A stretch of DNA of 64,000 nt, taken from NCBI RefSeq assembly GCF_002854065.1, contig NZ_CP024147.1; one strand, 5' to 3'. The stretch's first letter is position 1; every line of letters starts with the position of its first letter. This DNA comes from Escherichia coli. Its GTDB lineage: Bacteria; Pseudomonadota; Gammaproteobacteria; Enterobacterales; Enterobacteriaceae. A program made the translations under genes and the position numbers. This document shows, piece by piece, positions 10,113-32,677 of the stretch. The notes under the pieces are model-generated. The model searched no databases and was not told the DNA's origin. It saw only the letters and a list, made by a program, of their open reading frames with translations.

Positions 10113-12089
10113 ATGTCTGACGACATGTCTATGGGTTTGCCTTCGTCAGCGGGCGAACACGGTGTACTACGCTCCATGCAGGAGGTTGCAATGAGCTCCC
10201 AGGAAGCCAGCAAGATGCTGCGTACTTACAATATTGCCTGGTGGGGCAATAACTACTATGACGTTAACGAGCTGGGCCACATTAGCGTGTGCCCGGACCC
10301 GGACGTCCCGGAAGCTCGCGTCGATCTCGCGCAGTTAGTGAAAACTCGTGAAGCACAGGGCCAGCGTCTGCCTGCACTGTTCTGTTTCCCACAGATCCTG
10401 CAGCACCGTTTGCGTTCCATTAACGCCGCGTTCAAACGTGCGCGGGAATCCTACGGCTATAACGGCGATTACTTCCTTGTTTATCCGATCAAAGTTAACC
10501 AGCACCGCCGCGTGATCGAGTCCCTGATTCATTCGGGCGAACCACTGGGTCTGGAAGCCGGTTCCAAAGCCGAGTTGATGGCAGTGCTGGCACATGCTGG
10601 CATGACCCGTAGCGTCATCGTCTGCAACGGTTATAAAGACCGCGAATATATCCGCCTGGCATTAATTGGCGAGAAGATGGGGCACAAGGTCTATCTGGTC
10701 ATTGAGAAGATGTCAGAAATCGCCATTGTGCTGGATGAAGCAGAACGTCTGAATGTCGTTCCTCGTCTGGGCGTGCGTGCACGTCTGGCTTCGCAGGGCT
10801 CGGGTAAATGGCAGTCCTCCGGCGGGGAAAAATCGAAGTTCGGCCTGGCTGCGACTCAGGTACTGCAACTGGTTGAAACCCTGCGTGAAGCCGGGCGTCT
10901 CGACAGCCTGCAACTACTGCACTTCCACCTCGGTTCGCAGATGGCGAATATTCGCGATATCGCCACAGGCGTTCGTGAATCGGCGCGTTTCTATGTGGAA
11001 CTGCACAAGCTGGGCGTCAATATTCAGTGCTTCGACGTCGGCGGCGGTCTGGGCGTGGATTATGAAGGTACTCGTTCGCAGTCCGACTGTTCGGTGAACT
11101 ACGGCCTCAATGAATATGCCAACAACATCATCTGGGCGATTGGTGATGCGTGTGAAGAAAACGGTCTGCCGCATCCGACGGTAATCACCGAATCGGGTCG
11201 TGCGGTGACTGCGCATCACACCGTGCTGGTGTCGAATATCATCGGCGTGGAACGTAACGAATACACGGTGCCGACCGCGCCTGCAGAAGATGCGCCGCGC
11301 GCGCTGCAAAGCATGTGGGAAACCTGGCAGGAGATGCACGAACCGGGAACTCGCCGTTCTCTGCGTGAATGGTTACACGACAGTCAGATGGATCTGCACG
11401 ACATTCATATCGGCTACTCTTCCGGCACCTTTAGCCTGCAAGAACGTGCATGGGCTGAGCAGCTTTATTTGAGCATGTGCCATGAAGTGCAAAAGCAACT
11501 GGATCCGCAAAACCGTGCTCATCGTCCGATTATCGACGAGCTGCAGGAACGTATGGCGGACAAAATGTACGTCAACTTCTCGCTGTTCCAGTCGATGCCG
11601 GATGCGTGGGGGATCGACCAGTTGTTCCCGGTTCTGCCGCTGGAAGGGCTGGATCAAGTGCCGGAACGCCGCGCTGTGCTGCTGGATATTACCTGTGACT
11701 CTGACGGTGCTATCGACCACTATATCGATGGTGATGGTATTGCCACGACAATGCCTATGCCGGAGTACGATCCAGAGAATCCGCCGATGCTCGGTTTCTT
11801 TATGGTCGGCGCATATCAGGAGATCCTCGGCAACATGCACAACCTGTTCGGTGATACCGAAGCGGTTGACGTGTTCGTCTTCCCTGACGGTAGTGTAGAA
11901 GTGGAACTGTCTGACGAAGGCGATACCGTGGCGGACATGCTGCAATATGTACAGCTCGATCCGAAAACGCTGTTAACTCAGTTCCGTGATCAAGTGAAGA
12001 AAACCGATCTTGATGCTGAACTGCAACAACAGTTCCTTGAAGAGTTCGAGGCAGGTTTGTACGGTTATACCTATCTTGAAGATGAATAA
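10113..12089 (+). CDS. speA: Biosynthetic arginine decarboxylase, 658 aa
   Basis: ORF in track (listed from a TTG at 10101); ATG at 10113 gives [40 protein letters not shown]. Confidence 0.95.
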
Positions 12090-12105
12090 TTAAGATTATT
12101 CTGCT

Positions 12106-12148
12106 GGCGGGTCGATTTATTTACGTAAATCGGCCCGCTTTCTTTTTA
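12106..12148 (+). terminator. Rho-independent terminator after speA
   Basis: Hairpin gcgggtcgattta-tttacg-taaatcggcccgc followed by tttcttttt. Confidence 0.6.
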
Positions 12149-12234
12149 TATATTCTTAAAAATAATTTAGCTGCTTTTCTTATTAAATAATCTCCCTACA
12201 ATCGCTGCATTAATTAAATGCAGAGGGAACGGTT

Positions 12235-12513
12235 ATGAAAAAATGGAAAGTACGTAGCGCGTTGGTGGCATTAATCGTGCTGCTGGCCGGTTGTTCCAGT
12301 AATGCGCAGTATAATAGCAGTGCATCGGGCAATGTCGGCACCGCCTGGGGTGGGGATGTGCACTCAACGGTTCAGGGCGTATCTGCTGAGCGAGCCTGGC
12401 GCGATCCGGCGGAGATGATCGTTATTAGTTATTCGACTAATGTTCCTTCCGGCTACGACCGCGTTTATAGCATTCGTATTAACGAACTGGAATATGCTAT
12501 TCGCGATGGGTGA
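12235..12513 (+). pseudogene. 5-prime fragment of a lipoprotein gene, truncated by IS1 (stop codon supplied by the IS1 inverted repeat)
   Basis: Signal peptide plus lipobox MKKWKVRSALVALIVLLAGC-SS; reading frame runs into the IS1 left end and ends at TGA inside ggTGAtgctgcc. Confidence 0.55.
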
Positions 12514-12563
12514 TGCTGCCAACTTACTGATTTAGTGTATGATGGTGTTTTTGAGGTGCTCCA

Positions 12564-12839
12564 GTGGCTTCTGTTTCTATCAGCTGTCCCTCCTGTTCAG
12601 CTACTGACGGGGTGGTGCGTAACGGCAAAAGCACTGCCGGACATCAGCGCTATCTCTGCTCTCACTGCCGTAAAACATGGCAACTGCAGTTCACTTACAC
12701 CGCTTCTCAACCCGGTACGCACCAGAAAATCATTGATATGGCCATGAATGGCGTTGGATGCCGGGCAACCGCCCGCATTATGGGCGTTGGCCTCAACACG
12801 ATTTTCCGCCATTTAAAAAACTCAGGCCGCAGTCGGTAA
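12564..12839 (+). CDS. insA: IS1 InsA (transposition repressor / N-terminal part of InsAB-prime transposase)
   Basis: [43 protein letters not shown]...; A6C slippery site ttaaaaaactc near 12816. Confidence 0.9.
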
Positions 12840-13261
12840 CCTCGCGCATACAGCCGGGCAGTGACGTCATCGTCTGCGCGGAAATGGACGAACAGTGGGG
12901 ATACGTCGGGGCTAAATCGCGCCAGCGCTGGCTGTTTTACGCGTATGACAGGCTCCGGAAGACGGTTGTTGCGCACGTATTCGGTGAACGCACTATGGCG
13001 ACGCTGGGGCGTCTTATGAGCCTGCTGTCACCCTTTGACGTGGTGATATGGATGACGGATGGCTGGCCGCTGTATGAATCCCGCCTGAAGGGAAAGCTGC
13101 ACGTAATCAGCAAGCGATATACGCAGCGAATTGAGCGGCATAACCTGAATCTGAGGCAGCACCTGGCACGGCTGGGACGGAAGTCGCTGTCGTTCTCAAA
13201 ATCGGTGGAGCTGCATGACAAAGTCATCGGGCATTATCTGAACATAAAACACTATCAATAA
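12758..13261 (+). CDS. insB: IS1 InsB reading frame (expressed as InsAB-prime by -1 frameshifting)
   Basis: ORF in track ...[50 protein letters not shown]... Confidence 0.9.
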
Positions 13262-13463
13262 GTTGGAGTCATTACCCACGCAAAGCACTGTTTAGTTTTA
13301 CCATAGTACTTAGTAATAAAAGCATTCATGTTTTCCTCGTATATTATTATTTAAATTCAAACCACCAACTTCATTTGCGAGTCACCGGTATCCCATATTT
13401 TTGGGATGTAGCTATAATTATCCATTCCCGCTATTTAGTCTTCAAAAAAAATTACATTTAATA

Positions 13464-14069
13464 TCATTTATCTTGATTGAGAAATAGTAAGACTAAAAAA
13501 ACAAGCGTCGTCAACCAGCACACTGCTAACACGGTAAGAACGCTAATAAAAACACTCCACTGCTTCGTTTTATACCATTCAATATTTTTGTCAGTATGTT
13601 TTATTGGGAGTAGCTCTTCAGTAGAGAATTCCTGGCTGTTATCATTCCCAGAAATGTGTGCATCAGTGTTTACTTCCCTGGCCTCGCTATCATTGGTATA
13701 GCTACTACAGTCTTCATCACTGCCACGCTCATTCTCACAGACATGTTTCTCGACCTTTCCAAGATATCTGACGCCTTTTCGCGGAATGGTTTTAATTAGA
13801 GAACTCGACAAACCAGCGATGTCTAATGCCTTTCTAAGCATGTAAATCTGCCCATAATAACTGCTGTCGCTTACCGAACCTTTCTGCTCCCGCCAAACCT
13901 CATTGATAATATGTTGCTTATCGGATTCTCCCTGTAGTAAAAGGAGTAAAAATCGATAGCCGTTTTCAGACAGATTAATTACATTGCCTGTACTGGTGGT
14001 GATACGTCGAGACGCTGGGTAAAACTTAACTCCCTGCCCTAAAGAAAAATAAAAACGGTCATCGCTCAT
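13464..14069 (-). CDS. Putative membrane-anchored ToxR/CadC-like transcriptional regulator (N-terminal winged-helix domain, C-terminal TM helix), 201 aa
   Basis: ORF in track; N-terminal region resembles OmpR/ToxR-type DNA-binding domains (GVRYLGKV); hydrophobic stretch WSVFISVLTVLAVCWLTTLVFLVLLFL near the C-terminus; lies in AT-rich DNA. Confidence 0.45.
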   Translation of the reverse strand: MSDDRFYFSLGQGVKFYPASRRITTSTGNVINLSENGYRFLLLLLQGESDKQHIINEVWREQKGSVSDSSYYGQIYMLRKALDIAGLSSSLIKTIPRKGVRYLGKVEKHVCENERGSDEDCSSYTNDSEAREVNTDAHISGNDNSQEFSTEELLPIKHTDKNIEWYKTKQWSVFISVLTVLAVCWLTTLVFLVLLFLNQDK

Positions 14070-15395
14070 AAGTACCGAACCCTGTTTTCTTCTTCACATG
14101 ACTACTCATTACAACTTTGTATGAAGTAAGATGCAAAATCATATTGTTTACATTAAGTTAAGCAATTATACCGTTTAAACAAAGACAATACGTCTCTTTA
14201 TTTCTCATAAAACCCAAATCCCTTACAGGGCTTATTGAAAAATTTAAAAATCACAAATTTCTCAATACTAAAAATGAGATCACATAAGAAATCAAAAAAC
14301 CTTCTCATCTATTTTAAGTTTTCCCAACGTAAAATAAGAGCTTTTATTAATAACTGAACCACTTTACTGTTCTATTTGTTCAGGTATTGCATTACGGTGT
14401 GCTGAGATCCATAGGTGCATCCCTGTATCCCGCGATGAGACTAAAATAGTCGTGATTTAAGCTCGTATCAGATTCTTAGTGAATACCACATTTGTTATAA
14501 TTAAGTGAAAAGATACATTGCTGATTTACATTTTTTGGTTTACAAAATGTCATCACTTACAGAGTTATCGCTGACATATACCTTTAATCTCTTAATCCTT
14601 TCGTGTTATTGCAATACAACCATCCATAAAGCAGGCTATTTTTAGCAGGAAATACTCAGGTGTCAACATTCGAACCCCAACCCTGAAATATTCATATAAA
14701 TTAATGATTTTTTCATTTATTCACACCTAATCAAAGTATTCAAATTCAGATGATTTTTCTGCTCAACAGACACAAACAGGCAATAATACTCTCCAAAGCG
14801 AACAATATTTGGCATTACGATTTAATGCTTCATAATCACCAAATCATTTAACTATAAATTTTCTTATTTTTAACGAAATGGTTGGTGTTTTTTTGGAATT
14901 AAAACACATACATAATATTAACATCTACCGACATTTCACTTTCCGCAAGACGAATGATTTCGAATCCTCATCTACGTTCTCCCATCCCAAATATCTTTAT
15001 TAATAGGCAGTAACGAACACTGTTATAGCAAGATTACCTTATTAACCTAATGGAATCCTTTATGTAACAAGTGAAAATAAATTCCTTAAAATTGATTCTC
15101 AGCAAATCTTAAAAGTTCTCATTATTCTGCAAAATCAGCTTTGCGAATAATCTTATGTTTTTGGGAATTTTGATCTGCTCATTGCTCTCGTGAAAAATAC
15201 AAACAAGAGAAAAAACGCCATTCGTCATGAAAAGAACAGACGTAGCAATGTAATAACATACTAAAATTGATCTCATGAAAGTGGGTGCTTTATAACCAGC
15301 ACAGAAGCTCAGACGTATAAATATTAAACAATTTGCATTGTAAAACGGAGACTATGTATTAAGAAGCCAATCGTAAAAACGGTTCCCTGGCGAGA

Positions 15396-15443
15396 TAAAC
15401 GACAAACAAATGGAAAGCCGGATGATATTTACCTTCATCCGGC
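15396..15443 (-). terminator. Putative rho-independent terminator after glcA
   Basis: Hairpin gccggatga / tcatccggc followed on the minus strand by tttccatttgtttgtcgttta. Confidence 0.5.
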
Positions 15444-15452
15444 ATTATTGAC

Positions 15453-17135
15453 TTACGAAACTAACATCCCGGTAAACACATACGCCTGCAACAGCGTGAT
15501 AATGCCGATAACGCTGGCAAAAATCAGACTGTGCTTCACGGTATAGCGGAACAGTTCAGATTCTCGGCCCACCATGCCCGTCGCGGCGCAGGCCACGGCG
15601 ATAGATTGCGGGGAGATCATCTTGCCAGTTACGCCGCCGCTGGTATTTGCTGCCACCAGCAGAGTGTCAGAGACGTTGATTTGCTGCGCCGTGGTCGATT
15701 GCAGTGAACCAAACAGGGCGTTAGAGGAGGTGTCCGAGCCGGTAAGGAATACGCCCAGCCAGCCGAGAAACGGTGAGAAGAACGGGAACATCACGCCTGT
15801 ACCTGCCAGTACCAGCGCCAGCGTGGTGGACATGCCGGAATAGTTGGTGACGAAAGCGAACGCCAGCACCATGCCAATCGACAATATCGGCCACTTCAGA
15901 CTAATTAGCGTTTCGGCAAAGACGCCAATCCCTTTCTTGATGCCCACGCCGAGGATGAAGATAGAGATAATCGCCGCAATAAAAATAGCGGTGCCGCCAG
16001 CCGAGAGGGGGTCGAATTTAAACACCGCATCCATCGGCGTTGGTTGGGCGACAATGGGTGCCGCTTTCAACACTTGTTGATGCAAATGAGGGATCTGGAA
16101 ATTAATCACCAGTGAATAAAACGCGCCGCCCGGAGCAAATAACGCTTTAAACGGCTTCATGGTCCAGATGGTGACCAGCACCGTTAAGATTAAAAACGGT
16201 GACCACGCTCGAATGATTTGCCCCAGACTATATTCTGAAGGCACGGGACCGCCAGAAGATGGCTTATTTACCACCATCGCACCTGCGGATTGTCCCATGC
16301 TGATTGCCGTTTCGGTATTTTTCGGCCGCCAGACTTTAAGGAATAAAGCGAGTGAGACGATACTCACCAGCGCCGAAGTAATATCCGGCAGTTCCGGACC
16401 AATATAATTAGAGGTAAAGAACTGAGTGACAGCGAAGCTTCCCCCAGCAACCAGCGCCGCTGGCCACGTCTCTTTCACCCCTTTCCAGCCGTCCATCATT
16501 GCTACCAGCCAGAACGGCACAAGAACCGACAGGAACGGTAACTGACGTCCCGCCATTGCGCCAATGTGGAACGGATCGATTCCCGTTACCTGACCGGCGA
16601 CCAGAATCGGCACGCCCAACGCACCAAACGCCACCGGCGCAGTATTGGCAATCAGACACAGCCCTGCCGCGTATAAAGGTTTGAAGCCCAGGCCCACCAG
16701 CAGAGCACCAGTAATCGCCACCGGAGCACCAAAGCCAGCCGCCCCTTCCAGCAGCGCGCCAAAGGAGAAACCAATCAGTAACACCTGCAAACGCTGATCG
16801 TCAGTGATGGAGATGACCGAGCTGCGGATAATATCAAACTGACCGCTGGCAACGGTTAATTTATAGAGGAATACCGCTGCAACAATAATCCAGGCAATAG
16901 GCCATAAACCATAAATAAAGCCATAGCCCGCAGCAGCAAATGCCATATCAATCGGCATTTTAAAGGCGAATATCGCAATCAGGATAGATAATATAAGGGT
17001 TATCGCTCCAGCGACATGTCCTTTCAGACGTAATACCGCGAGTGCAACGAAGAAGAATATTATCGGGATCAGGGCGACCAGAGCGGATAGCCCCAGTCCT
17101 CCCATCGGCATATACATTTGGGTCCAGGTAACCAT
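15453..17135 (-). CDS. glcA: Glycolate/lactate permease (LctP family), 560 aa
   Basis: Full-length polytopic ORF recognised as GlcA; last gene of the glc operon. Confidence 0.9.
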
Positions 17136-17489
17136 ATTGTTCAGTCTCTTATTATCTTTATATGCTTGATATACTTAAGGTTGTAATAAGCAAAAGAGGA
17201 CTGAACTGTAAAATATAGGCGTTATACTTTACAGCAACAGTACGCCGCTAACGCAATTGCTACCTCTGGCATAACAAGTATATCGGGTAAGGGTTTCTGT
17301 TCCGCACACGCAGGCGCAGAGTATCGTTAAGATGTCCATATTGTTGTTTTAATCCCGCTAGTAATGCGCTACGGGTATTTAATATTGTTAAACCCTGATA
17401 ATCGCTCCGGTTATTTCCGGGATAAATGTACTACCGCAGTTACTATCATAGCCCCGACAATAAAACTTGCCGGGGCTTTTTTGACGCTA

Positions 17490-19661
17490 TTAATGACTTT
17501 CTTTTTCGCGTAAACGCCAGGCGTGTAATAACGGTTCGGTATAACCGTTTGGCTGTTTCACGCCGAGGAAGATCAAATCGCTGGCAGCTTTAAAAGCACA
17601 CGAGTTAGCGAAATTCCCCGCCATCGGACGATAAGCCGGATCGCCAGCGTTTTGCTGATCAACCACTTTCGCCATATTCTCCAGCGACGCCTGCACCTGT
17701 TCTTTGGTCAGAATACCGTGACGTAACCAGTTGGCGATATGCTGGCTGGAGATGCGCAGCGTTGCGCGGTCTTCCATCAGCGCCACATTGTGAATATCCG
17801 GCACTTTTGAACAACCAATCCCCTGCTCCACCCAGCGCACCACGTACCCCAGAATCCCCTGCACGTTGTTATCCAGCTCTTGTTGGATCTCTTGCGCCGA
17901 CCAGTTAGCGTTTTCAGCAACCGGAATAGTCAGCAGATCGTCCAGCAGCGGTTCAAATTCAGCATTGAACTCGGTCTGGGCAATGTTGGCTTGCACGCTC
18001 TGTACGTTGGTTTGGTGGTAGTGCAGCGCATGGAGCGTAGCAGCGGTTGGTGACGGAACCCAGGCTGTGTTTGCCCCGGCACGCAGCTGATCGCCCTTCT
18101 GGCTGTACATGTCTGCCATCAGGTCCGGCATTGCCCACATGCCTTTACCAATTTGCGCTTTACCGCGCAGCCCACAGAACAGACCGGAAAGCACGTTATT
18201 ACGCTCGTAGGCTTTGATCCAAGGCGTCGATTTCATCTGATTTTTACGCAGCATCGGGCCAGCTTCCATCACCGAATGCATTTCATCGCCGGTACGGTCG
18301 AGGAAACCGGTATTGATGAACGCCACGCGGTTGCGCGCCTGAGCGATACAGCTACGCAAGTTCAGCGAGGTCCGACGTTCTTCATCCATAATGCCCATTT
18401 TCAGGGTATTCGGTGCCATACCGAGCATTGTCTCAATGCGGGTAAACAGTTTGTTGGCGAACGCCACTTCCTGCGGACCGTGCATTTTCGGTTTCACAAT
18501 ATAGACGCTGCCAGTGCGCGAGTTTTTCTGCACTTTTAAATCATAGAGGGCAATCGCGCCAGTCATGACGCCATCAAGAATGCCTTCCGGGATTTCATTG
18601 CCTTCACTGTCCCAAATCACAGGAATGGTCATCAAATGACCCACGTTGCGGATAAACAGCAACGAGCGTCCGTGCAGAGAAATTTCAGAGCCATCGGCGG
18701 CGGTGTACTGACGATCGTCATTCAGTTTACGTACGATTTGCCGACCGTTTTTCTCCATTTTCTCTTGCAGAGTCCCCTGCATCAGGCCCAGCAGATTGCG
18801 GTACAGCAGGATTTTATCTTCCGCATCAACCGCCGCGACCGAATCTTCGCAGTCGAGAATGGTACTGATAGCAGCTTCGACGATAACATCGTTGATGTGC
18901 GCCGGATCGTCTTTGCCAATCCGCCCGTTGGCATCAATTTGCAGTTCAATATGCAGGCCGTTATTTTTCAGCAAAATGCAGGACGGCGCAGCGGCATTGC
19001 CACGGTAACCGACAAACTGCGCCGGGGTACGTAACGTGGTTTCTTTACCATTTTTCAACTGGATGCGTAATTGTTTATCAACTACCTTAAACGCCACCAC
19101 ATCCTGATAGCTGCCGTTTTCCAGCGGTAGTGATTCATCGAGGAAACGCCGAACCCAGGCGATAACCTGCTCACCGCGCTGCGGATCGTAGCCGCTGACC
19201 ATCGCCCCTTCCTGCGGGATGATGTCGCTGCCGTATAACGCATCGTACAGTGAGCCCCAGCGAGCGTTCGCCGCGTTCAGCGCGTAGCGGGCGTTCATTG
19301 CCGGAACCACCAGCTGTGGCCCCGCCTGGCTGGTGATTTCGCTGTCAATGCCCGTGGTTTCCACCGTCACGCGCTCCGGTTGCGGCACCAGGTAGCCCAG
19401 TTCACGCAGGAAAGATTTATAGGCCGCTTTATCTTTTACCGGCCCCGGATTGCTGCGATGCCACTCATCAAGCGCCGCCTGAATGCGATCGCGTTCTGCC
19501 AGCAACTGACGATTTTCTGGTGCCAGATCGTGAACGATCTCATCAAAATTGCGCCAGAACGCCGCAGCGTCTAGCCCTGTTCCCGGTAAAACTTCTTCAT
19601 CCACAAAACGTTTAAAATTGGCGTCAATGCGTAAACGGCCCTGGGTTATGGTTTGACTCAT
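17490..19661 (-). CDS. glcB: Malate synthase G, 723 aa
   Basis: ORF in track; start set at [25 protein letters not shown]. Confidence 0.95.
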
Positions 19662-19682
19662 TGTTTCTCTCCTCATTTTCGC

Positions 19683-20087
19683 TTATTTCGCCAACACCGC
19701 TGCTGCCGCTTTCGCGACCTGCGCATCCTGTGCTCCGGTTAAACCAGAAACGCCCACGGCACCAATAATTTGCCCATCAACAACAACCGGTACGCCGCCT
19801 TCCAGCGACGTTAATAACGGCGCAGTCACGAACGCGGTACGTCCGTTGTTCACCATCTCTTCATAGCCCTTAGTTTCACGACGCCCCAACGCGGCGGTAC
19901 GCGCTTTCTCCTGGGAGATGTAAGCCGCAATCGGCGCGCAATCGTCCATGCGACTTAACGCCAGCAGATGACCGCCGTCATCGGCAACAGCAATGGAAAC
20001 AGACCAGTTATTTTTCTGCGCCTCTTCCTGACCTGCGGCAATAATTGCACTCGCCATTTGCTGGCTAAGAATGACTTTAGTTTTCAT
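19683..20087 (-). CDS. glcG: GlcG (heme-binding-like protein of the glc operon), 134 aa
   Basis: ORF in track; start set at MKTKVILSQQMASAIIAAGQEEA. Confidence 0.85.
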   Translation of the reverse strand: MKTKVILSQQMASAIIAAGQEEAQKNNWSVSIAVADDGGHLLALSRMDDCAPIAAYISQEKARTAALGRRETKGYEEMVNNGRTAFVTAPLLTSLEGGVPVVVDGQIIGAVGVSGLTGAQDAQVAKAAAAVLAK

Positions 20088-20091
20088 TTTT

Positions 20092-21315
20092 TTATTCCTT
20101 TTCAAGGGCTTGTTCTACAATTTCAATCCAGTGACGCACAGAGGTACGACCGGCGCTCGCCAGATGCGTCTGGCAACCAATGTTGGCGGTGACGATCATT
20201 TCCGGTTTGCCGCTTTCCAGCGCATTCATTTTGTTATCCCGCAGCTGGCGTGCCAGATCGGGATGCGTTAACGCATATGTTCCCGCTGAACCGCAGCACA
20301 GATGGCTGTCAGGAACGTCCGTTAAGGTAAATCCAAGACGAAGCAACACTTTTTCCACTTCGCCGTTCAGCTTTTGCGCATGTTGTAGGGTACACGGGCA
20401 GTGGAAGGCCAGTTTTTTATCGCCGCGAATTGCCAGTTTTTCCAGCGGTTCCTCGCGCAGAAGCTCGACTAAATCGACCGCTAGTTCACTGACCTGACGC
20501 GCTTTATCGGCATATAACGCATCGTTTTTCAGCATCTGCCCATACTCTTTGACAAACGCGCCGCAGCCGCTGGCGGTTTGCAAAATTGCCTCGGCACCTG
20601 CTTCAATCGCGGGCCACCAGGCATCAATATTATTGCGCGCCCGTGCCAGCCCTTTCTCCTGCGCATTAAGATGATAGTCCACCGCGCCACAACAGCCTGC
20701 TTCGTTAGCTGGCATGACGCTGATCCCCAGACGATCCAGCACTCGCGCAGTTGCCGCGTTGGTGTTGGGCGAAAGCGTAGGCTGGGCGCAGCCTTCCAGC
20801 ATTAAAACCCGACGCTTATGGCGCAGCGGCGGACGCGGTTTAGCTTTCACCGTTTCAGCAGGCAGTTTTGCTCTGACCTGTTCCGGTAAAAACGGTCGCA
20901 GCACCAGCCCTACCTGCGTCAGCGCACGGAAGACCGCCGGACGCGGCACTACCTGGCGCAATCCTTCGCGCAGTATTCGCTCCGGCAGTGGGCGTTTCAC
21001 TTTCTGCTCGACAATATCACGCCCGATATCCAGCAAATTGTGATAGCGCACACCAGAAGGACAGGTGGTTTCACAATTGCGGCAAGTGAGGCAGCGATCG
21101 AGATGCTCCTGTGTTTTAAGCGTGACTTCGTTGCCTTCCAGCACCTGTTTAATCAGATAGATGCGCCCGCGCGGCCCGTCCAGTTCATCGCCCAGAAGCT
21201 GATAGGTTGGGCAGGTTGCGGTACAAAATCCGCAGTGAACACAGGCGCGCAGGATGCTGTCGGCTTCCTGCGCCCGCGCGTTCTGCCGCATCTCTTCGGT
21301 TAAACGGGTTTGCAT
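20092..21315 (-). CDS. glcF: Glycolate oxidase iron-sulfur subunit, 407 aa
   Basis: ORF in track; start set at MQTRLTEEMRQNARAQEADSILRACVHCGFCTATCPTYQ; two CxxCxxCxxxCP ferredoxin-type motifs. Confidence 0.9.
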   Translation of the reverse strand: MQTRLTEEMRQNARAQEADSILRACVHCGFCTATCPTYQLLGDELDGPRGRIYLIKQVLEGNEVTLKTQEHLDRCLTCRNCETTCPSGVRYHNLLDIGRDIVEQKVKRPLPERILREGLRQVVPRPAVFRALTQVGLVLRPFLPEQVRAKLPAETVKAKPRPPLRHKRRVLMLEGCAQPTLSPNTNAATARVLDRLGISVMPANEAGCCGAVDYHLNAQEKGLARARNNIDAWWPAIEAGAEAILQTASGCGAFVKEYGQMLKNDALYADKARQVSELAVDLVELLREEPLEKLAIRGDKKLAFHCPCTLQHAQKLNGEVEKVLLRLGFTLTDVPDSHLCCGSAGTYALTHPDLARQLRDNKMNALESGKPEMIVTANIGCQTHLASAGRTSVRHWIEIVEQALEKE

Positions 21316-21325
21316 AGCCTGCTCC

Positions 21326-22378
21326 TTAAAGTTCCGCGTACATGCGACCGGGGTTAAACACGCCGCAAGGATCGAGCTGCTGTTTAAGCTGCTGGTGATA
21401 GCGGAATAAAGGAGCCGGTAGCGGGGCAAAGCCACCATCTCCGGCACTAAAGCGGGTCGCATGACCGCCAGCGTTGCGGGCGATGCGATGGATTTGATTG
21501 TCATCGGCTGTCGATTTCAGCCAGCGTAACGCCCCGCCCCAGTCGATCAGTTGCTCGCCGGGTAAATCCATCATCGGCGCATCGCTGGGTAATGAAATGC
21601 GCCATAAGGTACCTGGTAACGAGAAGAACGGCAGTTGTTGTTCACGCAATTGCTGCCAGAACTGACCCGCCACCTCTTCGCCACCCAGCAGTTCACGCGC
21701 TGCTTTTACCGATCCTTCGCCGCCCTCAAGACGGATCCACAACGCATTGTCGAAGTAACATAAGCCACTAATGGGTAATGGCTGGAGTTGCCACTCGGCG
21801 ATTTCACTCATGGCTTCTTGCAGGCTGATTTCCCGACGCAGGCTCAGGGAGGCGCGCGGTCGCGGTAACACTTTCATTGAGATTTCAGTGAGCACGCCAA
21901 GACAACCGTAGCTTCCGGCCATTAACCGTGAGAGATCGTATCCGGCAACGTTTTTCATCACTTCGCCACCAAAACGCAGATGTTTTCCAGCGCCGGTAAT
22001 GATGCGCGTGCCGAGGACAAAATCGCGGACCGAACCGCTCCACGGGCGACGCGGCCCCGCCAGCCCGCAGGCGACCATCCCGCCCCAGGTGGCTTCTTCA
22101 CCATAATGCGGCGGCTCGCAGGGAAGCATTTGCCCGGCGCTCTCCAGCGCCGCTTCAATCGCCACCAGCGGCGTTCCGGCACGAGCGGTTATCACCAGCT
22201 CGGTCGGGTCGTAATTAACAATGCCGCGATGACAACGCACATCCAGCGTTTGCCCGGTGACTGGGCGACCTAAAAAGGCTTTGCTATTGCTGCCCTGAAT
22301 CACCAGCGGCGTTTTATCGCTAATTGCCTGATTCACCTGCTCCAGCAGCGCCTGACTGTAATCACACTCGCGTAGCAT
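21326..22378 (-). CDS. glcE: Glycolate oxidase FAD-binding subunit, 350 aa
   Basis: Full-length ORF; FAD-binding PCMH-type domain. Confidence 0.9.
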   Translation of the reverse strand: MLRECDYSQALLEQVNQAISDKTPLVIQGSNSKAFLGRPVTGQTLDVRCHRGIVNYDPTELVITARAGTPLVAIEAALESAGQMLPCEPPHYGEEATWGGMVACGLAGPRRPWSGSVRDFVLGTRIITGAGKHLRFGGEVMKNVAGYDLSRLMAGSYGCLGVLTEISMKVLPRPRASLSLRREISLQEAMSEIAEWQLQPLPISGLCYFDNALWIRLEGGEGSVKAARELLGGEEVAGQFWQQLREQQLPFFSLPGTLWRISLPSDAPMMDLPGEQLIDWGGALRWLKSTADDNQIHRIARNAGGHATRFSAGDGGFAPLPAPLFRYHQQLKQQLDPCGVFNPGRMYAEL

Positions 22379-24898: not shown

Positions 24899-26041
24899 TT
24901 AAATCTGCTTTTCATACAATCGGTAACGCTTGTACGGCTCTGCCCCAATGCGTTCCAGCATGTTATTCATGCCTGTATTGGTTTCGAGGATCCATGACAT
25001 CTCCAGCGCATCGATCTTCCGGCGGGCAAACGGATCGCGTAAGGCTTCAATCAATAACAGCGCAATCACCGGGCCGATGCGGCTGAACTGATACTCGTCC
25101 CGCACGCCCATCAGCGGCACTCGCGCAGTTCGCACACCGCTGACTTTCAAACGCCACAGCAATTTTGCCCAGCCGAAGGGAAAGAGCGATCCGTTCAGAT
25201 CGGCAATCGCCTCGTTGATGTTCGGCAAGCCGACAATAAACGCGCAGGGTGCAGAATCAATCTCAGCGATGTAGATCATATCGTCCGGCACCAGATATTT
25301 AAGTTGATCGCCCATGGTCGCGAATTCATGTTCGGTAAACGGCACAAATCCCCAGTTGTGCTGCCAGCCAGAGTTGAAAATCTCACGCAGGATCTGCATC
25401 TCTTCGGCAAACCGCTGGCGATTGATGCAGCGAATGGTCACCTTTTTGCGCACCTGATCCATCAGTTTTTTTAGCGCCGGAGAGAAAGTGAGATCGGTTC
25501 GCTGCATCCACCACGCCAGTAAATCAATGCCTTTGTGATAACCCAGTTGTTCAATATGCGCGGCATACCACGGTTTGCCGTGTGGCATCATCGCACAGGG
25601 TGGTGTGTCAAAACCTTCAATCAGTAATCCGCTTTCCTGATTGATATTCAGGCTGAAAGGCCCGCTGATCTTACTTGCACCTTGTGACTTCAACCACGCT
25701 TCCGCTGCGCCAAACAACGCGGCAAAAACCTGCGGATCATCAATGGCGTCAATCATTCCGAAATGACCGGTATCTTCACCGTAACGCTCACGGTGCAAGG
25801 TATCTATTTGCGCGGTAATACGCCCAACTATCTGCCCCGCTTTTTTTGCCACCCACGCCTGCCAGATGATATGGTCCGTCCCCGGATTTTTCGCAGACAA
25901 ATGCTCGCTGCGTTCAATGAATAAAGGGGGTATCCAGTTTGGATCATCGGGATAAAGTGATGACGGAAAAGCGATAAATGCCTTAAGGTCATTTTTATTA
26001 ATTACTTTTTCAATTTTGATCATCAGCAGATCGCATTCCAT
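24899..26041 (-). CDS. yghO: YghO-family protein, predicted acyltransferase (GNAT-like), about 375-380 aa
   Basis: Full-length ORF; start ATG at 26041 or 26023; recognised as YghO family; fold assignment is from memory of family annotation. Confidence 0.6.
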   Translation of the reverse strand: MECDLLMIKIEKVINKNDLKAFIAFPSSLYPDDPNWIPPLFIERSEHLSAKNPGTDHIIWQAWVAKKAGQIVGRITAQIDTLHRERYGEDTGHFGMIDAIDDPQVFAALFGAAEAWLKSQGASKISGPFSLNINQESGLLIEGFDTPPCAMMPHGKPWYAAHIEQLGYHKGIDLLAWWMQRTDLTFSPALKKLMDQVRKKVTIRCINRQRFAEEMQILREIFNSGWQHNWGFVPFTEHEFATMGDQLKYLVPDDMIYIAEIDSAPCAFIVGLPNINEAIADLNGSLFPFGWAKLLWRLKVSGVRTARVPLMGVRDEYQFSRIGPVIALLLIEALRDPFARRKIDALEMSWILETNTGMNNMLERIGAEPYKRYRLYEKQI

Positions 26042-26411
26042 AGTTCTGTGGGTAACAAATAATTAACGGTGAAAAACAGGTTGCAACAGCAACGAACGGC
26101 ATCTTAATAATCAACCCAATGAATACAAACGACGAATAAATAGTATTTATTAATGATTACGATAGGGTCAGCGACTACGCAGAAGCGCCACAATGCCTTT
26201 TGTCGATTTAAGGCGACCGGACAAGGCTTCTTCTTAATATATTCATAAATTAAATATCATTCACAATAAAAACAAAAAACTTAAATTCATTATTTAAATC
26301 AATGTTCATTTTCACACCGATGAAAATACTATCTCATTTATCTTTTATGCCTATATAATCCACCGCATTATTGTCATTTTATTTTGGATATCCAATTTTT
26401 TCGTGGTGTAT

Positions 26412-28133
26412 ATGTCTAATAAAATCTTTACGCATTCCCTACCTATGCGCTATGCCGATTTTCCAACGCTGGTTGATGCTTTGGACTACGCCGCTCTGAG
26501 TAGCGCTGGAATGAATTTTTATGACAGACGTTGCCAACTTGAAGATCAACTGGAATATCAGACGTTAAAAGCGCGTGCCGAAGCTGGTGCGAAGCGGTTG
26601 TTATCGCTAAACCTGAAAAAAGGCGATCGCGTGGCGCTGATTGCCGAAACCAGTAGCGGGTTCGTAGAGGCTTTTTTTTCCTGCCAGTATGCCGGCTTAG
26701 TCGCCGTCCCGTTGGCGATTCCAATGGGCGTCGGTCAGCGGGATTCCTGGAGCGCCAAACTGCAGGGTTTACTGGCAAGTTGCCAGCCCGCTGCCATTAT
26801 CACTGGTGATGAGTGGTTGCCGCTGGTCAATGCCGCCACGCATAACAACCCCGAATTGCATGTATTAAGCCACGCCTGGTTTAAGGCATTACCGGAAGCT
26901 GATGTTGCGCTCCAGCGCCCAGTTCCGGACGATATCGCCTACCTCCAGTACACCTCCGGCAGCACCCGTTTTCCCCGTGGCGTCATTATCACCCATCGCG
27001 AAGTGATGGCTAATCTACGTGCTATAAGCCACGATGGCATTAAATTACGCCCTGGCGACCGCTGCGTCTCCTGGCTGCCTTTCTACCATGATATGGGACT
27101 GGTCGGCTTTCTCCTGACCCCGTTCGCCACGCAGCTTTCAGTAGATTATTTGCGCACTCAGGATTTTGCCATGCGTCCTCTGCAATGGCTTAAATTGATC
27201 AGTAAAAATCGCGGCACCGTTTCCGTTGCGCCGCCGTTTGGCTATGAATTGTGCCAGCGCCGCGTGAATGAAAAAGATCTCGCTGAACTGGATCTTTCCT
27301 GCTGGCGCGTCGCTGGTATTGGTGCAGAACCCATCTCCGCAGAACAACTCCATCAATTCGCTGAATGTTTCCGTCAGGTTAACTTTGACGATAAAACTTT
27401 CATGCCGTGCTACGGACTGGCAGAAAATGCGCTGGCTGTCAGTTTCTCTGATGAAGCCTCCGGGGTTGTGGTTAACGAAGTGGATCGCGACATCCTCGAA
27501 TATCAGGGTAAAGCCGTTGCGCCGGGTGCAGAGACACGCGCCGTATCGACTTTCGTCAACTGCGGTAAAGCGTTGCCGGAACATGGTATTGAAATCCGCA
27601 ATGAAGCAGGTATACCTGTCGCGGAACGTGTGGTAGGCCATATTTGCATCTCCGGCCCTAGCCTGATGAGCGGTTACTTTGGCGACCAGGTTTCACAAGA
27701 CGAGATTGCCGCGACGGGCTGGTTAGACACCGGGGACCTCGGTTATCTGCTGGACGGTTATCTGTATGTCACCGGACGCATTAAAGATCTGATTATTATT
27801 CGTGGCCGTAATATCTGGCCGCAGGATATTGAATATATTGCGGAACAGGAACCGGAAATTCATTCTGGCGATGCGATTGCTTTTGTTACCGCCCAGGAAA
27901 AAATCATTTTGCAGATCCAGTGTCGGATCAGCGATGAAGAACGTCGCGGGCAGCTTATCCACGCGCTGGCAGCACGGATCCAAAGCGAATTTGGCGTAAC
28001 AGCGGCTATCGATCTGTTGCCGCCCCACAGTATTCCCCGAACGTCCTCCGGTAAGCCTGCCCGTGCGGAAGCGAAAAAACGTTATCAGAAGGCTTATGCT
28101 GCCAGTCTTCATGTGCAGGAATCCCTGGCATGA
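26412..28133 (+). CDS. Fatty acyl-AMP ligase / acyl-CoA synthetase-like adenylating enzyme, about 573 aa
   Basis: AMP-binding core motif YTSGSTRFPRGVIITH and the overall architecture of ANL-superfamily enzymes; first gene of a 4-gene operon. Confidence 0.75.
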   Translation: MSNKIFTHSLPMRYADFPTLVDALDYAALSSAGMNFYDRRCQLEDQLEYQTLKARAEAGAKRLLSLNLKKGDRVALIAETSSGFVEAFFSCQYAGLVAVPLAIPMGVGQRDSWSAKLQGLLASCQPAAIITGDEWLPLVNAATHNNPELHVLSHAWFKALPEADVALQRPVPDDIAYLQYTSGSTRFPRGVIITHREVMANLRAISHDGIKLRPGDRCVSWLPFYHDMGLVGFLLTPFATQLSVDYLRTQDFAMRPLQWLKLISKNRGTVSVAPPFGYELCQRRVNEKDLAELDLSCWRVAGIGAEPISAEQLHQFAECFRQVNFDDKTFMPCYGLAENALAVSFSDEASGVVVNEVDRDILEYQGKAVAPGAETRAVSTFVNCGKALPEHGIEIRNEAGIPVAERVVGHICISGPSLMSGYFGDQVSQDEIAATGWLDTGDLGYLLDGYLYVTGRIKDLIIIRGRNIWPQDIEYIAEQEPEIHSGDAIAFVTAQEKIILQIQCRISDEERRGQLIHALAARIQSEFGVTAAIDLLPPHSIPRTSSGKPARAEAKKRYQKAYAASLHVQESLA

Positions 28134-29044
28134 ATCAAACTGTCGCGGTGACGGGCGCTACCGGGTTTATCGGTAAATATATTATCGATAACCTGCTCAC
28201 CCGCGGCTTTCACGTTCGCGCATTGACGCGTACTGCCCGCGCTCACGTCAATGATAATCTTACTTGGGTGCGCGGTTCGCTGGAAGATACACATTCGCTT
28301 AGCGAACTGGTTGCCGGAGCCAGCGCGGTGGTCCATTGCGCCGGGCAAGTGCGCGGACACAAAGAAGAGATTTTTACCCACTGTAACGTTGACGGCAGCC
28401 TGCGCCTGATGCAAGCAGCAAAAGAGAGCGGCTTTTGCCAACGTTTTCTGTTTATCTCTTCGCTGGCGGCGCGCCATCCCGAGCTCTCCTGGTACGCAAA
28501 TTCCAAACACGTCGCCGAACAACGGCTGACGGCAATGGCTGACGAAATTACGCTGGGCGTTTTTCGCCCGACAGCCGTGTATGGTCCCGGCGATAAAGAG
28601 TTAAAACCGCTGTTTGACTGGATGCTGCGCGGCCTGCTGCCACGACTTGGTGCACCAGATACACAGTTCTCTTTCCTGCATGTCACCGATTTTGCGCAAG
28701 CAGTGGGTCAGTGGTTAAGCGCCGAAACTGTACAGACGCAAACCTATGAATTATGCGATGGCGTCGCTGGCGGCTATGACTGGCAACGCGTACGACAGCT
28801 TGCCGCCGAAGCCCGTTGTGGTTCCGTGCGGATGGTTGGCCTTCCTCTGCCGGTACTCACCTGCCTTGCGGATATCAGTACTGCGTTGAGTCGCCTGGCA
28901 GGTAAAGAACCTATGCTGACCCGCTCGAAAATTCGTGAATTAACCCACGCCGACTGGTCGGCAAGTAATAACCGTATTTCTGAAGATATTAATTGTTTTC
29001 CCGGGATTAGCCTGGAACACGCATTACGCAACGGGCTATTTTGA
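28130..29044 (+). CDS. NAD(P)-dependent epimerase/dehydratase-family (SDR) oxidoreductase, 304 aa
   Basis: N-terminal Rossmann motif VTGATGFIGKYI; start overlaps the upstream stop (ATGA). Confidence 0.7.
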   Translation: MNQTVAVTGATGFIGKYIIDNLLTRGFHVRALTRTARAHVNDNLTWVRGSLEDTHSLSELVAGASAVVHCAGQVRGHKEEIFTHCNVDGSLRLMQAAKESGFCQRFLFISSLAARHPELSWYANSKHVAEQRLTAMADEITLGVFRPTAVYGPGDKELKPLFDWMLRGLLPRLGAPDTQFSFLHVTDFAQAVGQWLSAETVQTQTYELCDGVAGGYDWQRVRQLAAEARCGSVRMVGLPLPVLTCLADISTALSRLAGKEPMLTRSKIRELTHADWSASNNRISEDINCFPGISLEHALRNGLF

Positions 29045-29075
29045 TTGTCTTGTTTAAAGGTGTGTTAACGTTTCT

Positions 29076-29324
29076 ATGGTAAATCGTGAAATAGTAATGG
29101 ATTACATCCTTTCCTGTTTACAGGATTTGGTCGAAAACGGTGTGGAAATTAAGCCCGACAGCGATCTCGTCAACGATCTTGGCCTGGAGTCGATCAAAGT
29201 GATGGATCTCTTAATGATGCTGGAAGACAGATTCGATATTTCCATTCCTATTAATATTCTGCTGGATGTCAAAACCCCTGCGCAATTAATGGAAACTCTA
29301 CTTCCATGGCTGGAGAATAAATAA
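29076..29324 (+). CDS. Acyl carrier protein-like small protein, about 75-82 aa
   Basis: Phosphopantetheine-attachment-like motif DLGLESIKVMDL; acidic helical protein; start ambiguous (29076 or 29097). Confidence 0.6.
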   Translation: MVNREIVMDYILSCLQDLVENGVEIKPDSDLVNDLGLESIKVMDLLMMLEDRFDISIPINILLDVKTPAQLMETLLPWLENK

Positions 29325-30496
29325 TGGGGCTATACGATAAATATGCGCGCCTTGCTGGCGAGCGACTGCAATTTAGTGACAACGGGTTAACACCGTTTGG
29401 CACCTGTATTGATGAAGTGTATTCCGCCACCGAAGGCCGGATCGGCAATAAAAAAGTGATTCTGGCCGGGACCAATAATTACCTCGGTTTAACCTTTAAT
29501 CATGATGCCATCGCCGAAGGTCAGGCAGCGTTAGCGGCCCAAGGCACCGGCACCACCGGTTCTCGTATGGCAAACGGCAGTTATGCGCCGCACCTGGCGT
29601 TAGAGAAAGAGATTGCCGAGTTTTTCAATCGCCCTACCGCTATCGTTTTTTCAACCGGTTATACCGCTAATTTAGGCGTCATCAGCGCACTTGCCGACCA
29701 TAACGCCGTGGTGTTACTGGATGCCGACAGCCACGCCAGTATTTATGACGCCTGTTCTCTCGGTGGCGCGGAAATTATTCGTTTCCGCCATAACGATGCT
29801 AAAGATCTGGAACGGCGCATGGTTCGCCTCGGTGAACGGGCGAAAGAGGCGATTATCATCGTTGAGGGTATCTACAGCATGCTCGGTGACGTTGCGCCGC
29901 TGGCGGAAATTGTTGATATCAAACGTCGTCTCGGTGGTTATTTGATTGTCGATGAAGCGCATTCGTTTGGCGTGTTAGGCGCAACGGGGCGCGGACTGGC
30001 TGAAGCTGTCGGCGTTGAAGATGATGTGGATATTATCGTTGGCACCTTCAGTAAAAGTCTGGCCTCGATTGGCGGTTTTGCTGTCGGTTCGGAAGCGATG
30101 GAAGTACTGCGCTACGGCAGCCGCCCGTATATTTTTACCGCCTCTCCTTCTCCGTCCTGCATTGCGACCGTGCGCTCGTCGTTAAAAACTATTGCCACAC
30201 AACCAGAGCTGCGGCAAAAGCTGATGGATAACGCCAACCATCTGTATGACGGTCTGCAAAAACTGGGTTATGAGTTAAGTTCACATATTAGCCCGGTAGT
30301 GCCGGTAATAATCGGTTCGAAAGAGGAAGGTTTACGCATCTGGCGCGAGCTTATTTCGCTGGGCGTTTATGTGAATCTTATCCTGCCACCTGCCGCGCCT
30401 GCAGGCATCACGCTGCTGCGCTGTAGCGTAAACGCTGCCCACAGTCGTGAGCAAATCGATGCCATCATTCAGGCATTTGCTACTCTGAAGCAGTAA
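29324..30496 (+). CDS. PLP-dependent alpha-oxoamine synthase family enzyme (BioF / serine palmitoyltransferase / CqsA-like), 390 aa
   Basis: Class-II aminotransferase fold with lysine motif GTFSKSLASIGGF; start overlaps the ACP stop. Confidence 0.75.
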   Translation: MGLYDKYARLAGERLQFSDNGLTPFGTCIDEVYSATEGRIGNKKVILAGTNNYLGLTFNHDAIAEGQAALAAQGTGTTGSRMANGSYAPHLALEKEIAEFFNRPTAIVFSTGYTANLGVISALADHNAVVLLDADSHASIYDACSLGGAEIIRFRHNDAKDLERRMVRLGERAKEAIIIVEGIYSMLGDVAPLAEIVDIKRRLGGYLIVDEAHSFGVLGATGRGLAEAVGVEDDVDIIVGTFSKSLASIGGFAVGSEAMEVLRYGSRPYIFTASPSPSCIATVRSSLKTIATQPELRQKLMDNANHLYDGLQKLGYELSSHISPVVPVIIGSKEEGLRIWRELISLGVYVNLILPPAAPAGITLLRCSVNAAHSREQIDAIIQAFATLKQ

Positions 30497-30530
30497 TGTG
30501 AGCCCGCCGTGGTGTTGCGCCACGGCGGGT

Positions 30531-31610
30531 TTAATGTTGTCTGTCATACCAATACACCAGGCTCAACGCCACCAGCACAAACGCTATCGGTAAACCGAGC
30601 GCGGTAACAGGTGCGCTCAACGCAAATAGCAATCCCAGATTGACCATGATTTGATAGCTGATCCAGGTGAGTAAGCCAACGATGACACCTACAGCGAGAC
30701 GGCTACCCATCCCTGGCGAGCGCGGGGCACTAAAGGTAAACGGCACAGCCAGCAAAATCATCGCCAGGGTCAGGATGGGTTGCCCCAGTTTTTCCCACAG
30801 TGCAAGGCGGTATTCGCTGCTGGGTTGCCCGGTTTCCTGCAAATAATGGATGTAATGATTAAGCTGACGGACAGAAAAAGTATTCCCCGGCATCGATAGC
30901 TCTTCAAGATCCATACTGGTGAAGGCCGATTGCCAGGCAAGATTATCTGATGTTTCCAGCGTTTCTTTGCCATTCAGCCATTTTTTATGATTCACACCAT
31001 GCAGGATCCACGTTTTGTCGTCTTCAATGGTGGCACTGCGTGCATAAATGTAGGATTCGAGCGAAAGATCATCACGATAATGAAAAATCTCCACGCGCAC
31101 AGGCTGGCCCTGCTCGTTCAGCGATTTTACCGTCACAAATTCATTACCGCGCCTGGCCCACAGCATATTGCCGGTAATGTCATCGTCCTCACCCAACGCA
31201 GTGGCAGTCGATTTGATTTGCAGCGCCTGTTGCTGCAATGGCGACGCTACCCACTCATCTATCGCGCCTAACGAAACAGTCCACAATATCCCGGCAACCA
31301 GCGCCACCAGTGCAATACGGAAGATAGAAAACCCCGTGCTGCGAATGGCGGTAAGCTCACTGTTTTTCGATAACTGCCCCAGGCCAACAATCCCTCCCAA
31401 TAAGGCGATAAACGGCGAAAGTTCGACCAGTGTGCGCGGTAAGGTCATTAGCACCACCAGCACCGCCTGAGTCCAGCGATAACCGCCCGGGCTGACATCA
31501 TCCAGTTCGTTAATCAGGTTGAAGGTGGTAAAAAGCGGCAGCAATAGCCCTGCGGCGGCGGCAAAACCGAGAAAGAGATGACGGATTAAATAGCGACTGA
31601 AAACATTCAT
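30531..31610 (-). CDS. LptF/LptG-family (YjgP/YjgQ) permease paralog, about 359 aa
   Basis: N-terminus MNVFSRYLIRHLFLGFAAAAGLL resembles LptF/LptG; polytopic with a large central soluble loop; start set at the Met with overlap to the upstream gene stop. Confidence 0.55.
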   Translation of the reverse strand: MNVFSRYLIRHLFLGFAAAAGLLLPLFTTFNLINELDDVSPGGYRWTQAVLVVLMTLPRTLVELSPFIALLGGIVGLGQLSKNSELTAIRSTGFSIFRIALVALVAGILWTVSLGAIDEWVASPLQQQALQIKSTATALGEDDDITGNMLWARRGNEFVTVKSLNEQGQPVRVEIFHYRDDLSLESYIYARSATIEDDKTWILHGVNHKKWLNGKETLETSDNLAWQSAFTSMDLEELSMPGNTFSVRQLNHYIHYLQETGQPSSEYRLALWEKLGQPILTLAMILLAVPFTFSAPRSPGMGSRLAVGVIVGLLTWISYQIMVNLGLLFALSAPVTALGLPIAFVLVALSLVYWYDRQH

Positions 31611-32677
31611 CGGGAAAATTTCTGCAGCAAAGAGAAGTCGCGTGCGACCAGCATCAGCAGGCCCATTAGCATGAGTCCGGGCACTAACCACAAACCAGGA
31701 ATGAGAGGAATCGCGCCGTTAGCCACCAGCGTACGGCAGACGTCGCCGCCATAAAAAATGGCAATAAACAGCAACGTCAGTGGCAATAACGTTGAAAATC
31801 GCCCCTGCCGCGGTTTTACCCGACTTAATGAAATGGCCAGCAGCGCCATCAACAATGCTGTCAGGCCACGGCTTTGTCGCCATTGCAGTTCGGCATGATC
31901 GGCTGGAAAGACGGAGCGCGCCAGCTCCGTGACCGATTTCGCTTTGCGTTTGACGTTAGGGCTTTGATCCAGCGGATTCAGATGTAATTGCAGATTACGG
32001 TAGATCTGTTCGTTGTCGTCACGCCCCTGATGATCGAGAAGATAGGCAGTGCCGTTGTGCAACATAACAGTCGGTTTCTCGGGTGATGGGTCAACCACAT
32101 CAACCGAACGGGCGCGGAAAATGCGGGTTCGATTGGCAGTAGAAGTATAAATCAGCGCGTCAGTCAGGCGATTATTATCCTGATCAACCGTCTGCGAAAG
32201 GATCATTCGTCCGTTATCGTTAGTGTTAAATTTCTTTGCCCGCAACTGGCGAACATCCAGCTCCGACTGCGACTGCTGCTCCAGTTGATAAATCTGCGCA
32301 TAAGCCCACGGACGACCATACATCGACAGAAGGGTGACAAAAATACTTAGCGGTATCGCCAGATAAAGAACGGCTTTGTACAAGCGTCCCGGACTGCCCC
32401 CCGCCGCAGAGATAGCGGTAATTTCCGAGTCGGTATACATCTGCCCTAGCGTCACGCCAACTGACACATACAGTCCAACAGGTAACAACATCTCCAGTGC
32501 AATCAGCACTTTGTAGAAAACGATATCCAGCACAACATCAAGTGCTAATGTCCCATTTGCCGCTTCGGTCAGATAACGCTGTGCGGAGTAGCTGGCGAAA
32601 ATAAAGATCAGAAAACCGACGATAATCAGCACCAGACGGCGCGTACCACGCATGATGTAGTGTTCAACCAGCTTCAT
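31607..32677 (-). CDS. LptF/LptG-family (YjgP/YjgQ) permease paralog, 356 aa
   Basis: Same architecture as the adjacent gene; translationally coupled pair. Confidence 0.55.
   Translation of the reverse strand: MKLVEHYIMRGTRRLVLIIVGFLIFIFASYSAQRYLTEAANGTLALDVVLDIVFYKVLIALEMLLPVGLYVSVGVTLGQMYTDSEITAISAAGGSPGRLYKAVLYLAIPLSIFVTLLSMYGRPWAYAQIYQLEQQSQSELDVRQLRAKKFNTNDNGRMILSQTVDQDNNRLTDALIYTSTANRTRIFRARSVDVVDPSPEKPTVMLHNGTAYLLDHQGRDDNEQIYRNLQLHLNPLDQSPNVKRKAKSVTELARSVFPADHAELQWRQSRGLTALLMALLAISLSRVKPRQGRFSTLLPLTLLFIAIFYGGDVCRTLVANGAIPLIPGLWLVPGLMLMGLLMLVARDFSLLQKFSR

Follow-up and report, generated by a model that had tools for sequence, protein, structure and literature searches.

An IS1 copy between two truncated genes very probably marks one end of a chromosomal inversion in Escherichia coli

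A complete IS1 element at positions 12509-13276 of the window (the whole 64,000-nucleotide stretch of Escherichia coli DNA analysed here, contig NZ_CP024147.1) very probably marks one end of a real, IS1-mediated chromosomal inversion. The element separates the 5′ fragments of two genes of one chromosome whose usual positions are distant from each other: on the left, an uncharacterised lipoprotein gene located between speA and speB, and on the right flp, the first gene of a tad pilus locus adjoining a winged-helix regulator gene and glcA. This place had been read as a rearrangement junction by the first-pass annotation, made from the letters of the window, and the comparison with related genomes bears this reading out. 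The relevant features are the following.

10113-12089, + strand: speA, biosynthetic arginine decarboxylase (ORF; every matching E. coli genome names it speA in its annotation), within the segment that would be inverted
12235-12508, + strand: 5′ fragment of the lipoprotein gene, 274 nt (91 codons plus 1 nt), the parent gene encoding 243 aa
12500-12508: ttcgcgatg, the 9 bp at the IS1 left end, IS1 target within the lipoprotein gene
12509-12531 and 13254-13276: imperfect 23-bp terminal repeats of IS1 (GGTGATGCTGCCAACTTACTGAT and GGTAATGACTCCAACTTATTGAT, respectively)
12564-12839, + strand: insA, intact ORF
12815-12821: A6C frameshift site (AAAAAAC), intact
12758-13261, + strand: ORF of the insB′ frame, intact
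13277-13285: cacgcaaag, the 9 bp at the IS1 right end, old target site in flp
13277-13329, − strand: 5′ fragment of the Flp family type IVb prepilin gene, 53 nt (17 codons plus 2 nt), leader-peptide residues only
13334-13338, − strand: Shine-Dalgarno sequence GAGGA of the flp fragment
13464-14069, − strand: 201-aa winged-helix (ToxR/HilA-like) regulator, intact, upstream of flp, on the flank that would not be inverted
15453-17135, − strand: glcA, glycolate permease, which anchors the right flank to the glc region

The IS1 element and its flanks

The element is an IS1 of the IS1B type, read from left end to right end on the + strand. All the hallmarks of the family were found: a length of 768 bp, terminal repeats of about 23 bp, and insA and insB′ frames joined by a −1 frameshift at the A6C site. 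It is identical over 768/768 positions to both IS1 copies of the sister clone CUWW06 (NZ_CP182139.1), whose transposase is annotated as IS1B family, with programmed frameshift (WP_095033700.1). As one of these two identical copies is bordered by a perfect 9-bp duplication (gctcttcag), the ends of the element could be placed exactly. The coordinates and completeness first proposed for it were thereby upheld, by length, terminal repeats and identity to the CUWW06 copies. A search of the whole window found it to be its sole IS1.

A simple IS1 insertion is recognised by a direct duplication of 8 or 9 bp on both sides of the element. The two sets of 9 bp flanking the window copy, ttcgcgatg and cacgcaaag, differ, and no direct repeat of 8 to 14 bp was detected when every offset was searched. 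The earlier remark that this copy lacks a target duplication is therefore correct. As controls, nine simple IS1 insertions were mapped, namely IS1#2 (the second IS1 copy of CUWW06) and eight copies located between speA and speB in other strains; all nine have clean duplications of 8 or 9 bp.

Both parent genes, whose identification had been left as a follow-up by the first-pass annotation, are now known: the 243-aa lipoprotein gene of the speA-speB interval, and a gene for a 78-aa Flp prepilin. On the left side, the lipoprotein ORF (12235-12513) runs into the element as previously described, and stops after 92 aa at a TGA (12511-12513) within the IS1 terminal repeat. This truncated product does not report on the orientation of the element, given that an IS1 inserted either way round yields the same stop, and several contigs matching the 92-aa product merely end at that point. 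The lipoprotein gene is present between speA and speB in 3,545 of the 5,426 complete E. coli genomes (∼65%). Its intact product is WP_000758914.1 in CUWW06 and in the next relative, 100416, and WP_000758915.1 in PapRG-06-5, the genome used here as reference for gene order; Pfam and NCBIfam searches with this protein gave no convincing family. Further left, window 1-12508 still carries the speA to metK to yggS region.

On the right side, the ribosome binding site GAGGA and the ATG at 13329, on the minus strand, were found as announced. The count of 18 codons had to be corrected, as flp itself provides only 17 codons plus 2 nt, and codon 18 (W) is completed by the first base of IS1; six IS1 codons follow, so that the whole ORF (13255-13329) encodes 24 aa. 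The intact homologue, of 78 aa (MNTFITKYYGKTKQCFAC FAKDERG/VTAIEY...), matches PF04964 (Flp_Fap) and has the G/XXXXEY cleavage motif of Flp/Tad pilins. Neither is found in the window fragment, which is a gene remnant of 17 leader codons rather than a functional pilin gene. For annotation purposes, the 92-aa and 24-aa ORFs should both be regarded as artefacts of truncation. The tad/Flp locus is rare, with 32 carriers, many of serotype O145:H28, among the 5,426 complete E. coli genomes; the window keeps a remnant of it (13277-14069), and it is intact in two of the related loci, L001 and L005. In the wider assembly collection, 1,085 blocks list the exact protein of the winged-helix regulator.

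Gene order in related genomes calls for an inversion

In PapRG-06-5, the order of genes is glcA, the winged-helix regulator, flp, the tad genes, a TcfC-like fimbrial cluster, a type VI secretion system (T6SS), tRNA-Phe (pheV), yqgA and speC, and further on metK, speA, the lipoprotein gene and speB. The flp and lipoprotein genes are carried by the same strand in PapRG-06-5, CUWW06 and 100416, and are separated by 78.8 kb, 37.0 kb and ∼108 kb, respectively. The two flanks of the window IS1 thus come from a single replicon, with a relative orientation that is reversed compared to the ancestral arrangement. Since the parent genes are co-oriented and the window joins their two 5′ parts head to head, an inversion is required. 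With the pheV island already reduced as in CUWW06, the inversion would cover 37 kb, which is its minimum length; with an intact island, as in PapRG-06-5 and 100416, it would cover 79 to 108 kb.

A deletion between the two breakpoints was also considered. It would fuse the 5′ part of flp to the 3′ part of the lipoprotein gene, and remove metK. It is excluded by the co-orientation of the parent genes and by the presence, on the left flank, of the intervening DNA (speA, metK). Of the two outcomes that had been left open by the first-pass annotation, inversion or deletion, the former is thus retained and the latter discarded.

The flp junction is older than the lipoprotein gene junction

CUWW06 is very close to the strain of the window, with 1 mismatch in the 12.5 kb of window 1-12508, and 3 mismatches in the 8.1 kb of window 13613-21745. 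It has the exact junction of the window between the IS1 right end and flp (100% identity, in one piece). Its lipoprotein gene is intact and free of IS1, and the segment going from speA to the T6SS is in the reference orientation. We conclude that within the clade the flp junction is ancestral and the lipoprotein gene junction is new, because CUWW06 shares the former and its lipoprotein gene is intact. The same IS1-flp junction was observed in a draft contig (L054), and many other draft contigs of the clade contain it or end there. In 100416, both flp and the lipoprotein gene are intact.

The left side of the same IS1 copy in CUWW06 (IS1#1) abuts a cut TcfC-like gene, without duplication. This copy has undergone an adjacent deletion of ∼12.3 kb reaching from flp into the TcfC-like gene, by which the tad locus was lost and the right junction kept. 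Three draft genomes carry this TcfC-IS1 junction on 126-kb contigs, which presumably run uninterrupted through the lipoprotein gene.

Other IS1 events were noted in the island. The second IS1 of CUWW06 lies within the winged-helix regulator gene; in 100416 an IS1 sits inside the tad locus, and DNA is lost from there up to the T6SS; in UGBN01000001.1 the regulator gene is cut, and an IS1 links what is left of it to the TcfC-like gene 3′ part; and another draft contig of the clade ends in an IS1 upstream of the regulator gene. The loci considered for these events (L003:6002-7882, L019, L052 and L057) are relatives of window 13277-14400. Taken over the clade, this looks like a repeated, IS1-driven erosion of the pheV island. 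The window would add to it a further step in the continuing erosion of an island encoding a tad pilus and a T6SS, in an E. coli clone that is rich in IS1 (∼40 copies).

The junction between IS1 and the lipoprotein gene is so far unique to the genome of the window, as no complete genome among 5,426 carries it. When window 11500-14500 was compared by megablast to these 5,426 E. coli genomes, no genome reached a query coverage of 80%. The left junction, scanned for as an exact pattern, gave 0 matches in the metagenome contigs and 0 in the species-representative genomes, and the scan of metagenome contigs for the right junction gave 0 matches as well. Exact look-ups of four proteins (the 92-aa product, the winged-helix regulator, the IS1-fused TcfC-like protein and the GlcF allele of the window) never returned the arrangement of the window.

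As to the consequences, flp had been inactive already, prior to the inversion. What is newly inactivated is the lipoprotein gene, and speA and speB are separated, meaning that they are no longer linked in the strain of the window.

IS1 inserts recurrently between speA and speB

The speA-speB interval, of ∼1 kb, is a recurrent target of IS1: at least 7 distinct sites are occupied in complete genomes, by IS1A, IS1B, IS1X4 and other variants. This survey includes window 12090-12508 together with loci L002, L007-L010 and L028-L033. The 9-mer ttcgcgatg itself, whose context (GATGGTAAT) resembles the ends of IS1, has been used in both orientations across lineages, one way in L007, L009 and L010, and the other way in L008 and in the window. 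In CP055786.1, an independent IS1 of a different variant (8 differences) is bordered by a perfect duplication of ttcgcgatg, in the orientation opposite to that of the window. L008, a contig of metagenomic origin and of a different lineage (43 mismatches in 10.4 kb), has an IS1 at ttcgcgatg in the window orientation, of which one side is seen. Among complete E. coli genomes, none has an IS1 at this 9-mer in the window orientation.

Such recurrence could mean that ttcgcgatg is a true sequence-specific hotspot of IS1, or that loss of the lipoprotein is selected; two inverted IS1 copies could also make the speA-pheV segment a reversible flip-flop. We consider this group of readings unlikely; if the last one were true, flipping of the speA-to-pheV segment would couple and uncouple speA and speB.

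A third kind of junction was seen at the same nucleotide of the lipoprotein gene in L011:10255-10298 (GCA_021702555.1, DAFRTS010000059.1), which reads ...ttcgcgatgGTTGATGCGCCGCGCGATAAATGC and then reaches the contig end. The 22-nt tail of this junction had no match in the 5,426 complete E. coli genomes.

How the inversion may have arisen

Target-primed replicative transposition, when intramolecular, is described as giving either a deletion (in cis) or an inversion (in trans), after which the element has no direct repeats, and as typical of IS1 and Tn9 (PMC9330008, section 5.2.1). In a set of intrachromosomal IS1 events, the donor copy was kept in 210 of 210 mutants, with duplications of 8 or 9 bp (PMC12428005). 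The window presents the corresponding features: one of its junctions is pre-existing and the other is new, and its relatives CUWW06 and 100416 have no IS1 at the target. Its geometry fits the prediction for the in trans reaction, with the right-end junction retained, and a new left-end junction made of the target flank nearest to IS1, in inverted orientation. The in cis form of this reaction yields an adjacent deletion, which is found in CUWW06 at the same end of the element.

We infer from this a one-step origin of the inversion, by intramolecular replicative transposition of the resident IS1 with a partner junction outside the window, and hold it to be roughly an even bet. The IS1 would have been resident in flp, with the 5′ fragment of that gene at its right end. 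It would then have targeted the 9 bp ttcgcgatg of the lipoprotein gene, on the same chromosome, at a distance of 37 kb if the chromosome was arranged as in the sister genome, or 79-108 kb with the pheV island intact. Strand transfer in trans would copy IS1 and invert the segment between donor and target in a single step, the original IS1 retaining its old right junction with the flp 5′ part and acquiring a new left junction with the lipoprotein gene 5′ part. A second, inverted IS1 copy is predicted at the far breakpoint, more than 12.5 kb to the left of the window IS1. At its right end the predicted sequence is GGAGTCATTACC followed directly by TTCGCGATGGTAATTTTAATTC, i.e. the IS1 right end, ttcgcgatg, the 3′ part of the lipoprotein gene, and then speB. 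Its left end would keep the prior neighbour of the element, either as ACTCCCAGCCCG followed by GGTGATGC (TcfC-like gene, as in CUWW06), or as CCTTCGCGAAACACGCAAAG followed by GGTGATGC (3′ part of flp, with the old duplication). The 9-bp target should be found once at each of the new junctions, in inverted orientation.

The route suggested by the first-pass annotation was different: two IS1 copies, each of which had already interrupted a gene, would have undergone homologous recombination. Of these two copies, the one in flp is shown by CUWW06 to be pre-existing. The lipoprotein gene is free of IS1 in CUWW06 and 100416, and in this respect the earlier scenario is not supported as it was stated. 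It can be recast with an IS1 that entered the lipoprotein gene by simple insertion, duplicating ttcgcgatg, once the lineages of CUWW06 and the window had separated, followed by RecA-mediated recombination between the two inverted 768-bp copies. We tentatively keep it in this form as a serious possibility, though somewhat on the doubtful side. It yields exactly the observed junction, the product sequence being identical by either route, and the distance to CUWW06 (∼2 SNPs per 10 kb) leaves time for two events. The target does take simple insertions elsewhere, as seen with the perfect duplication of CP055786.1 and with L008, which has the same target and orientation in another lineage. The IS1 copies of the clone, 100% identical, are good substrates for recombination, and inversions between IS1 copies are documented in Shigella (PMC1550401). 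On the other hand, two events are needed where one suffices, and the intermediate is found in no close relative, the lipoprotein gene being intact in CUWW06, in 100416 and, by deduction, in the three drafts. It is because no close relative shows this uninverted intermediate that the one-step transposition is preferred; as an account of the data it is at least equal to homologous recombination between pre-existing insertions, which is neither the only route nor the best supported, and stays a live rival.

Two further explanations would do without an inversion. In an assembly chimera, a true simple insertion in the lipoprotein gene and the separate IS1 of flp would have had their repeat exits misjoined. 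The ∼40 identical IS1 copies are classic sites for such misjoins, and the full junction is present in no other assembly (0 of 5,426 complete genomes, and empty scans of metagenomes and species representatives). However, a contig of at least 64 kb passing through one of ∼40 identical repeats implies long reads, which easily span an IS1. Chance would also have had to pick as wrong partner the nearest IS1 on that side, and in the sole orientation whose outcome is a viable local inversion and not a lethal metK deletion; a chimera would still demand that the new left junction of IS1 with the lipoprotein gene be real. We regard a chimera as improbable. Hardly credible at all is a simple insertion whose duplication has decayed, or an adjacent deletion mediated by IS1. 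Both account for the missing direct repeats, which are missing also at the adjacent deletion of CUWW06 IS1#1, but the flank loci lie 37-108 kb apart in the opposite relative orientation, and the intervening genes are kept on the left flank. An adjacent deletion would moreover join the 3′ part of the lipoprotein gene to the 5′ part of flp and lose metK, and flanks that are 99.99-100% identical to their intact counterparts leave no room for decay.

Comparison with known IS-mediated rearrangements

The closest parallel to the preferred one-step transposition is the intramolecular transposition of IS1 studied by Turlan and Chandler (1995, EMBO J 14:5410), as summarised in PMC9330008 (section 5.2.1). 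Shared with that description are the element itself, the loss of direct repeats, and an old junction that is kept next to a new one at a normal IS1 target; the sister clone displays the deletion outcome at the same IS1 end. The window differs in being a natural event, deduced from genome comparison, in which the second IS1 copy is predicted. An IS1 transposition leading to a 920-kb inversion in E. coli was reported by Badia et al. (1998, J Biol Chem 273:8376), according to its citation in PMC1550401. That inversion was selected for constitutive expression of yiaK-S, whereas the one proposed here would span 37-108 kb and has no known selected phenotype.

In Klebsiella pneumoniae, an IS26 inversion at mgrB (PMC10501869) is similar in that a resident IS attacks and splits a gene of the same chromosome; two inverted IS copies bound the segment, the target duplication is reversed at the two ends, and the parent has no IS at the target. 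The element there belongs to the IS6 family and makes an 8-bp duplication, and both ends as well as the parent were sequenced, with PCR confirmation, whereas the window shows one end. In Shigella (PMC1550401), IS1 copies likewise bound inversions separating closely related strains. Those inversions differ in that they are ascribed to recombination of copies already in place, in genomes where IS elements number in the hundreds; here the closest relatives are without the second copy.

The event is well-known, ordinary IS1 biology, and involves no new mechanism or element. If it did occur by one-step transposition, the window and CUWW06 would offer a natural example of a single resident IS1 copy giving both intramolecular outcomes in sister clones, an adjacent deletion in one and an inversion in the other.

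Other observations in the window

The yggR gene (PilT/PilU-type ATPase, window 859-1913, + strand) is broken into two overlapping ORFs. The identical region of CUWW06 is annotated as a frameshifted pseudogene, and the sole SNP of the left flank (position 1630) falls inside yggR. Beyond glcC, at ∼24900-31700, annotations of matching genomes point to a cluster of genes for a fatty acyl-AMP ligase, an acyl carrier protein, an NAD-dependent epimerase, an aminotransferase and an "LPS biosynthesis protein". Finally, positions 53647-53857 contain two direct repeats of 99 bp, 91% identical, with REP/BIME-like palindromes (gcctgatgcgctacgcttatcaggcctaca type), which are ordinary intergenic repeat DNA of E. 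coli.
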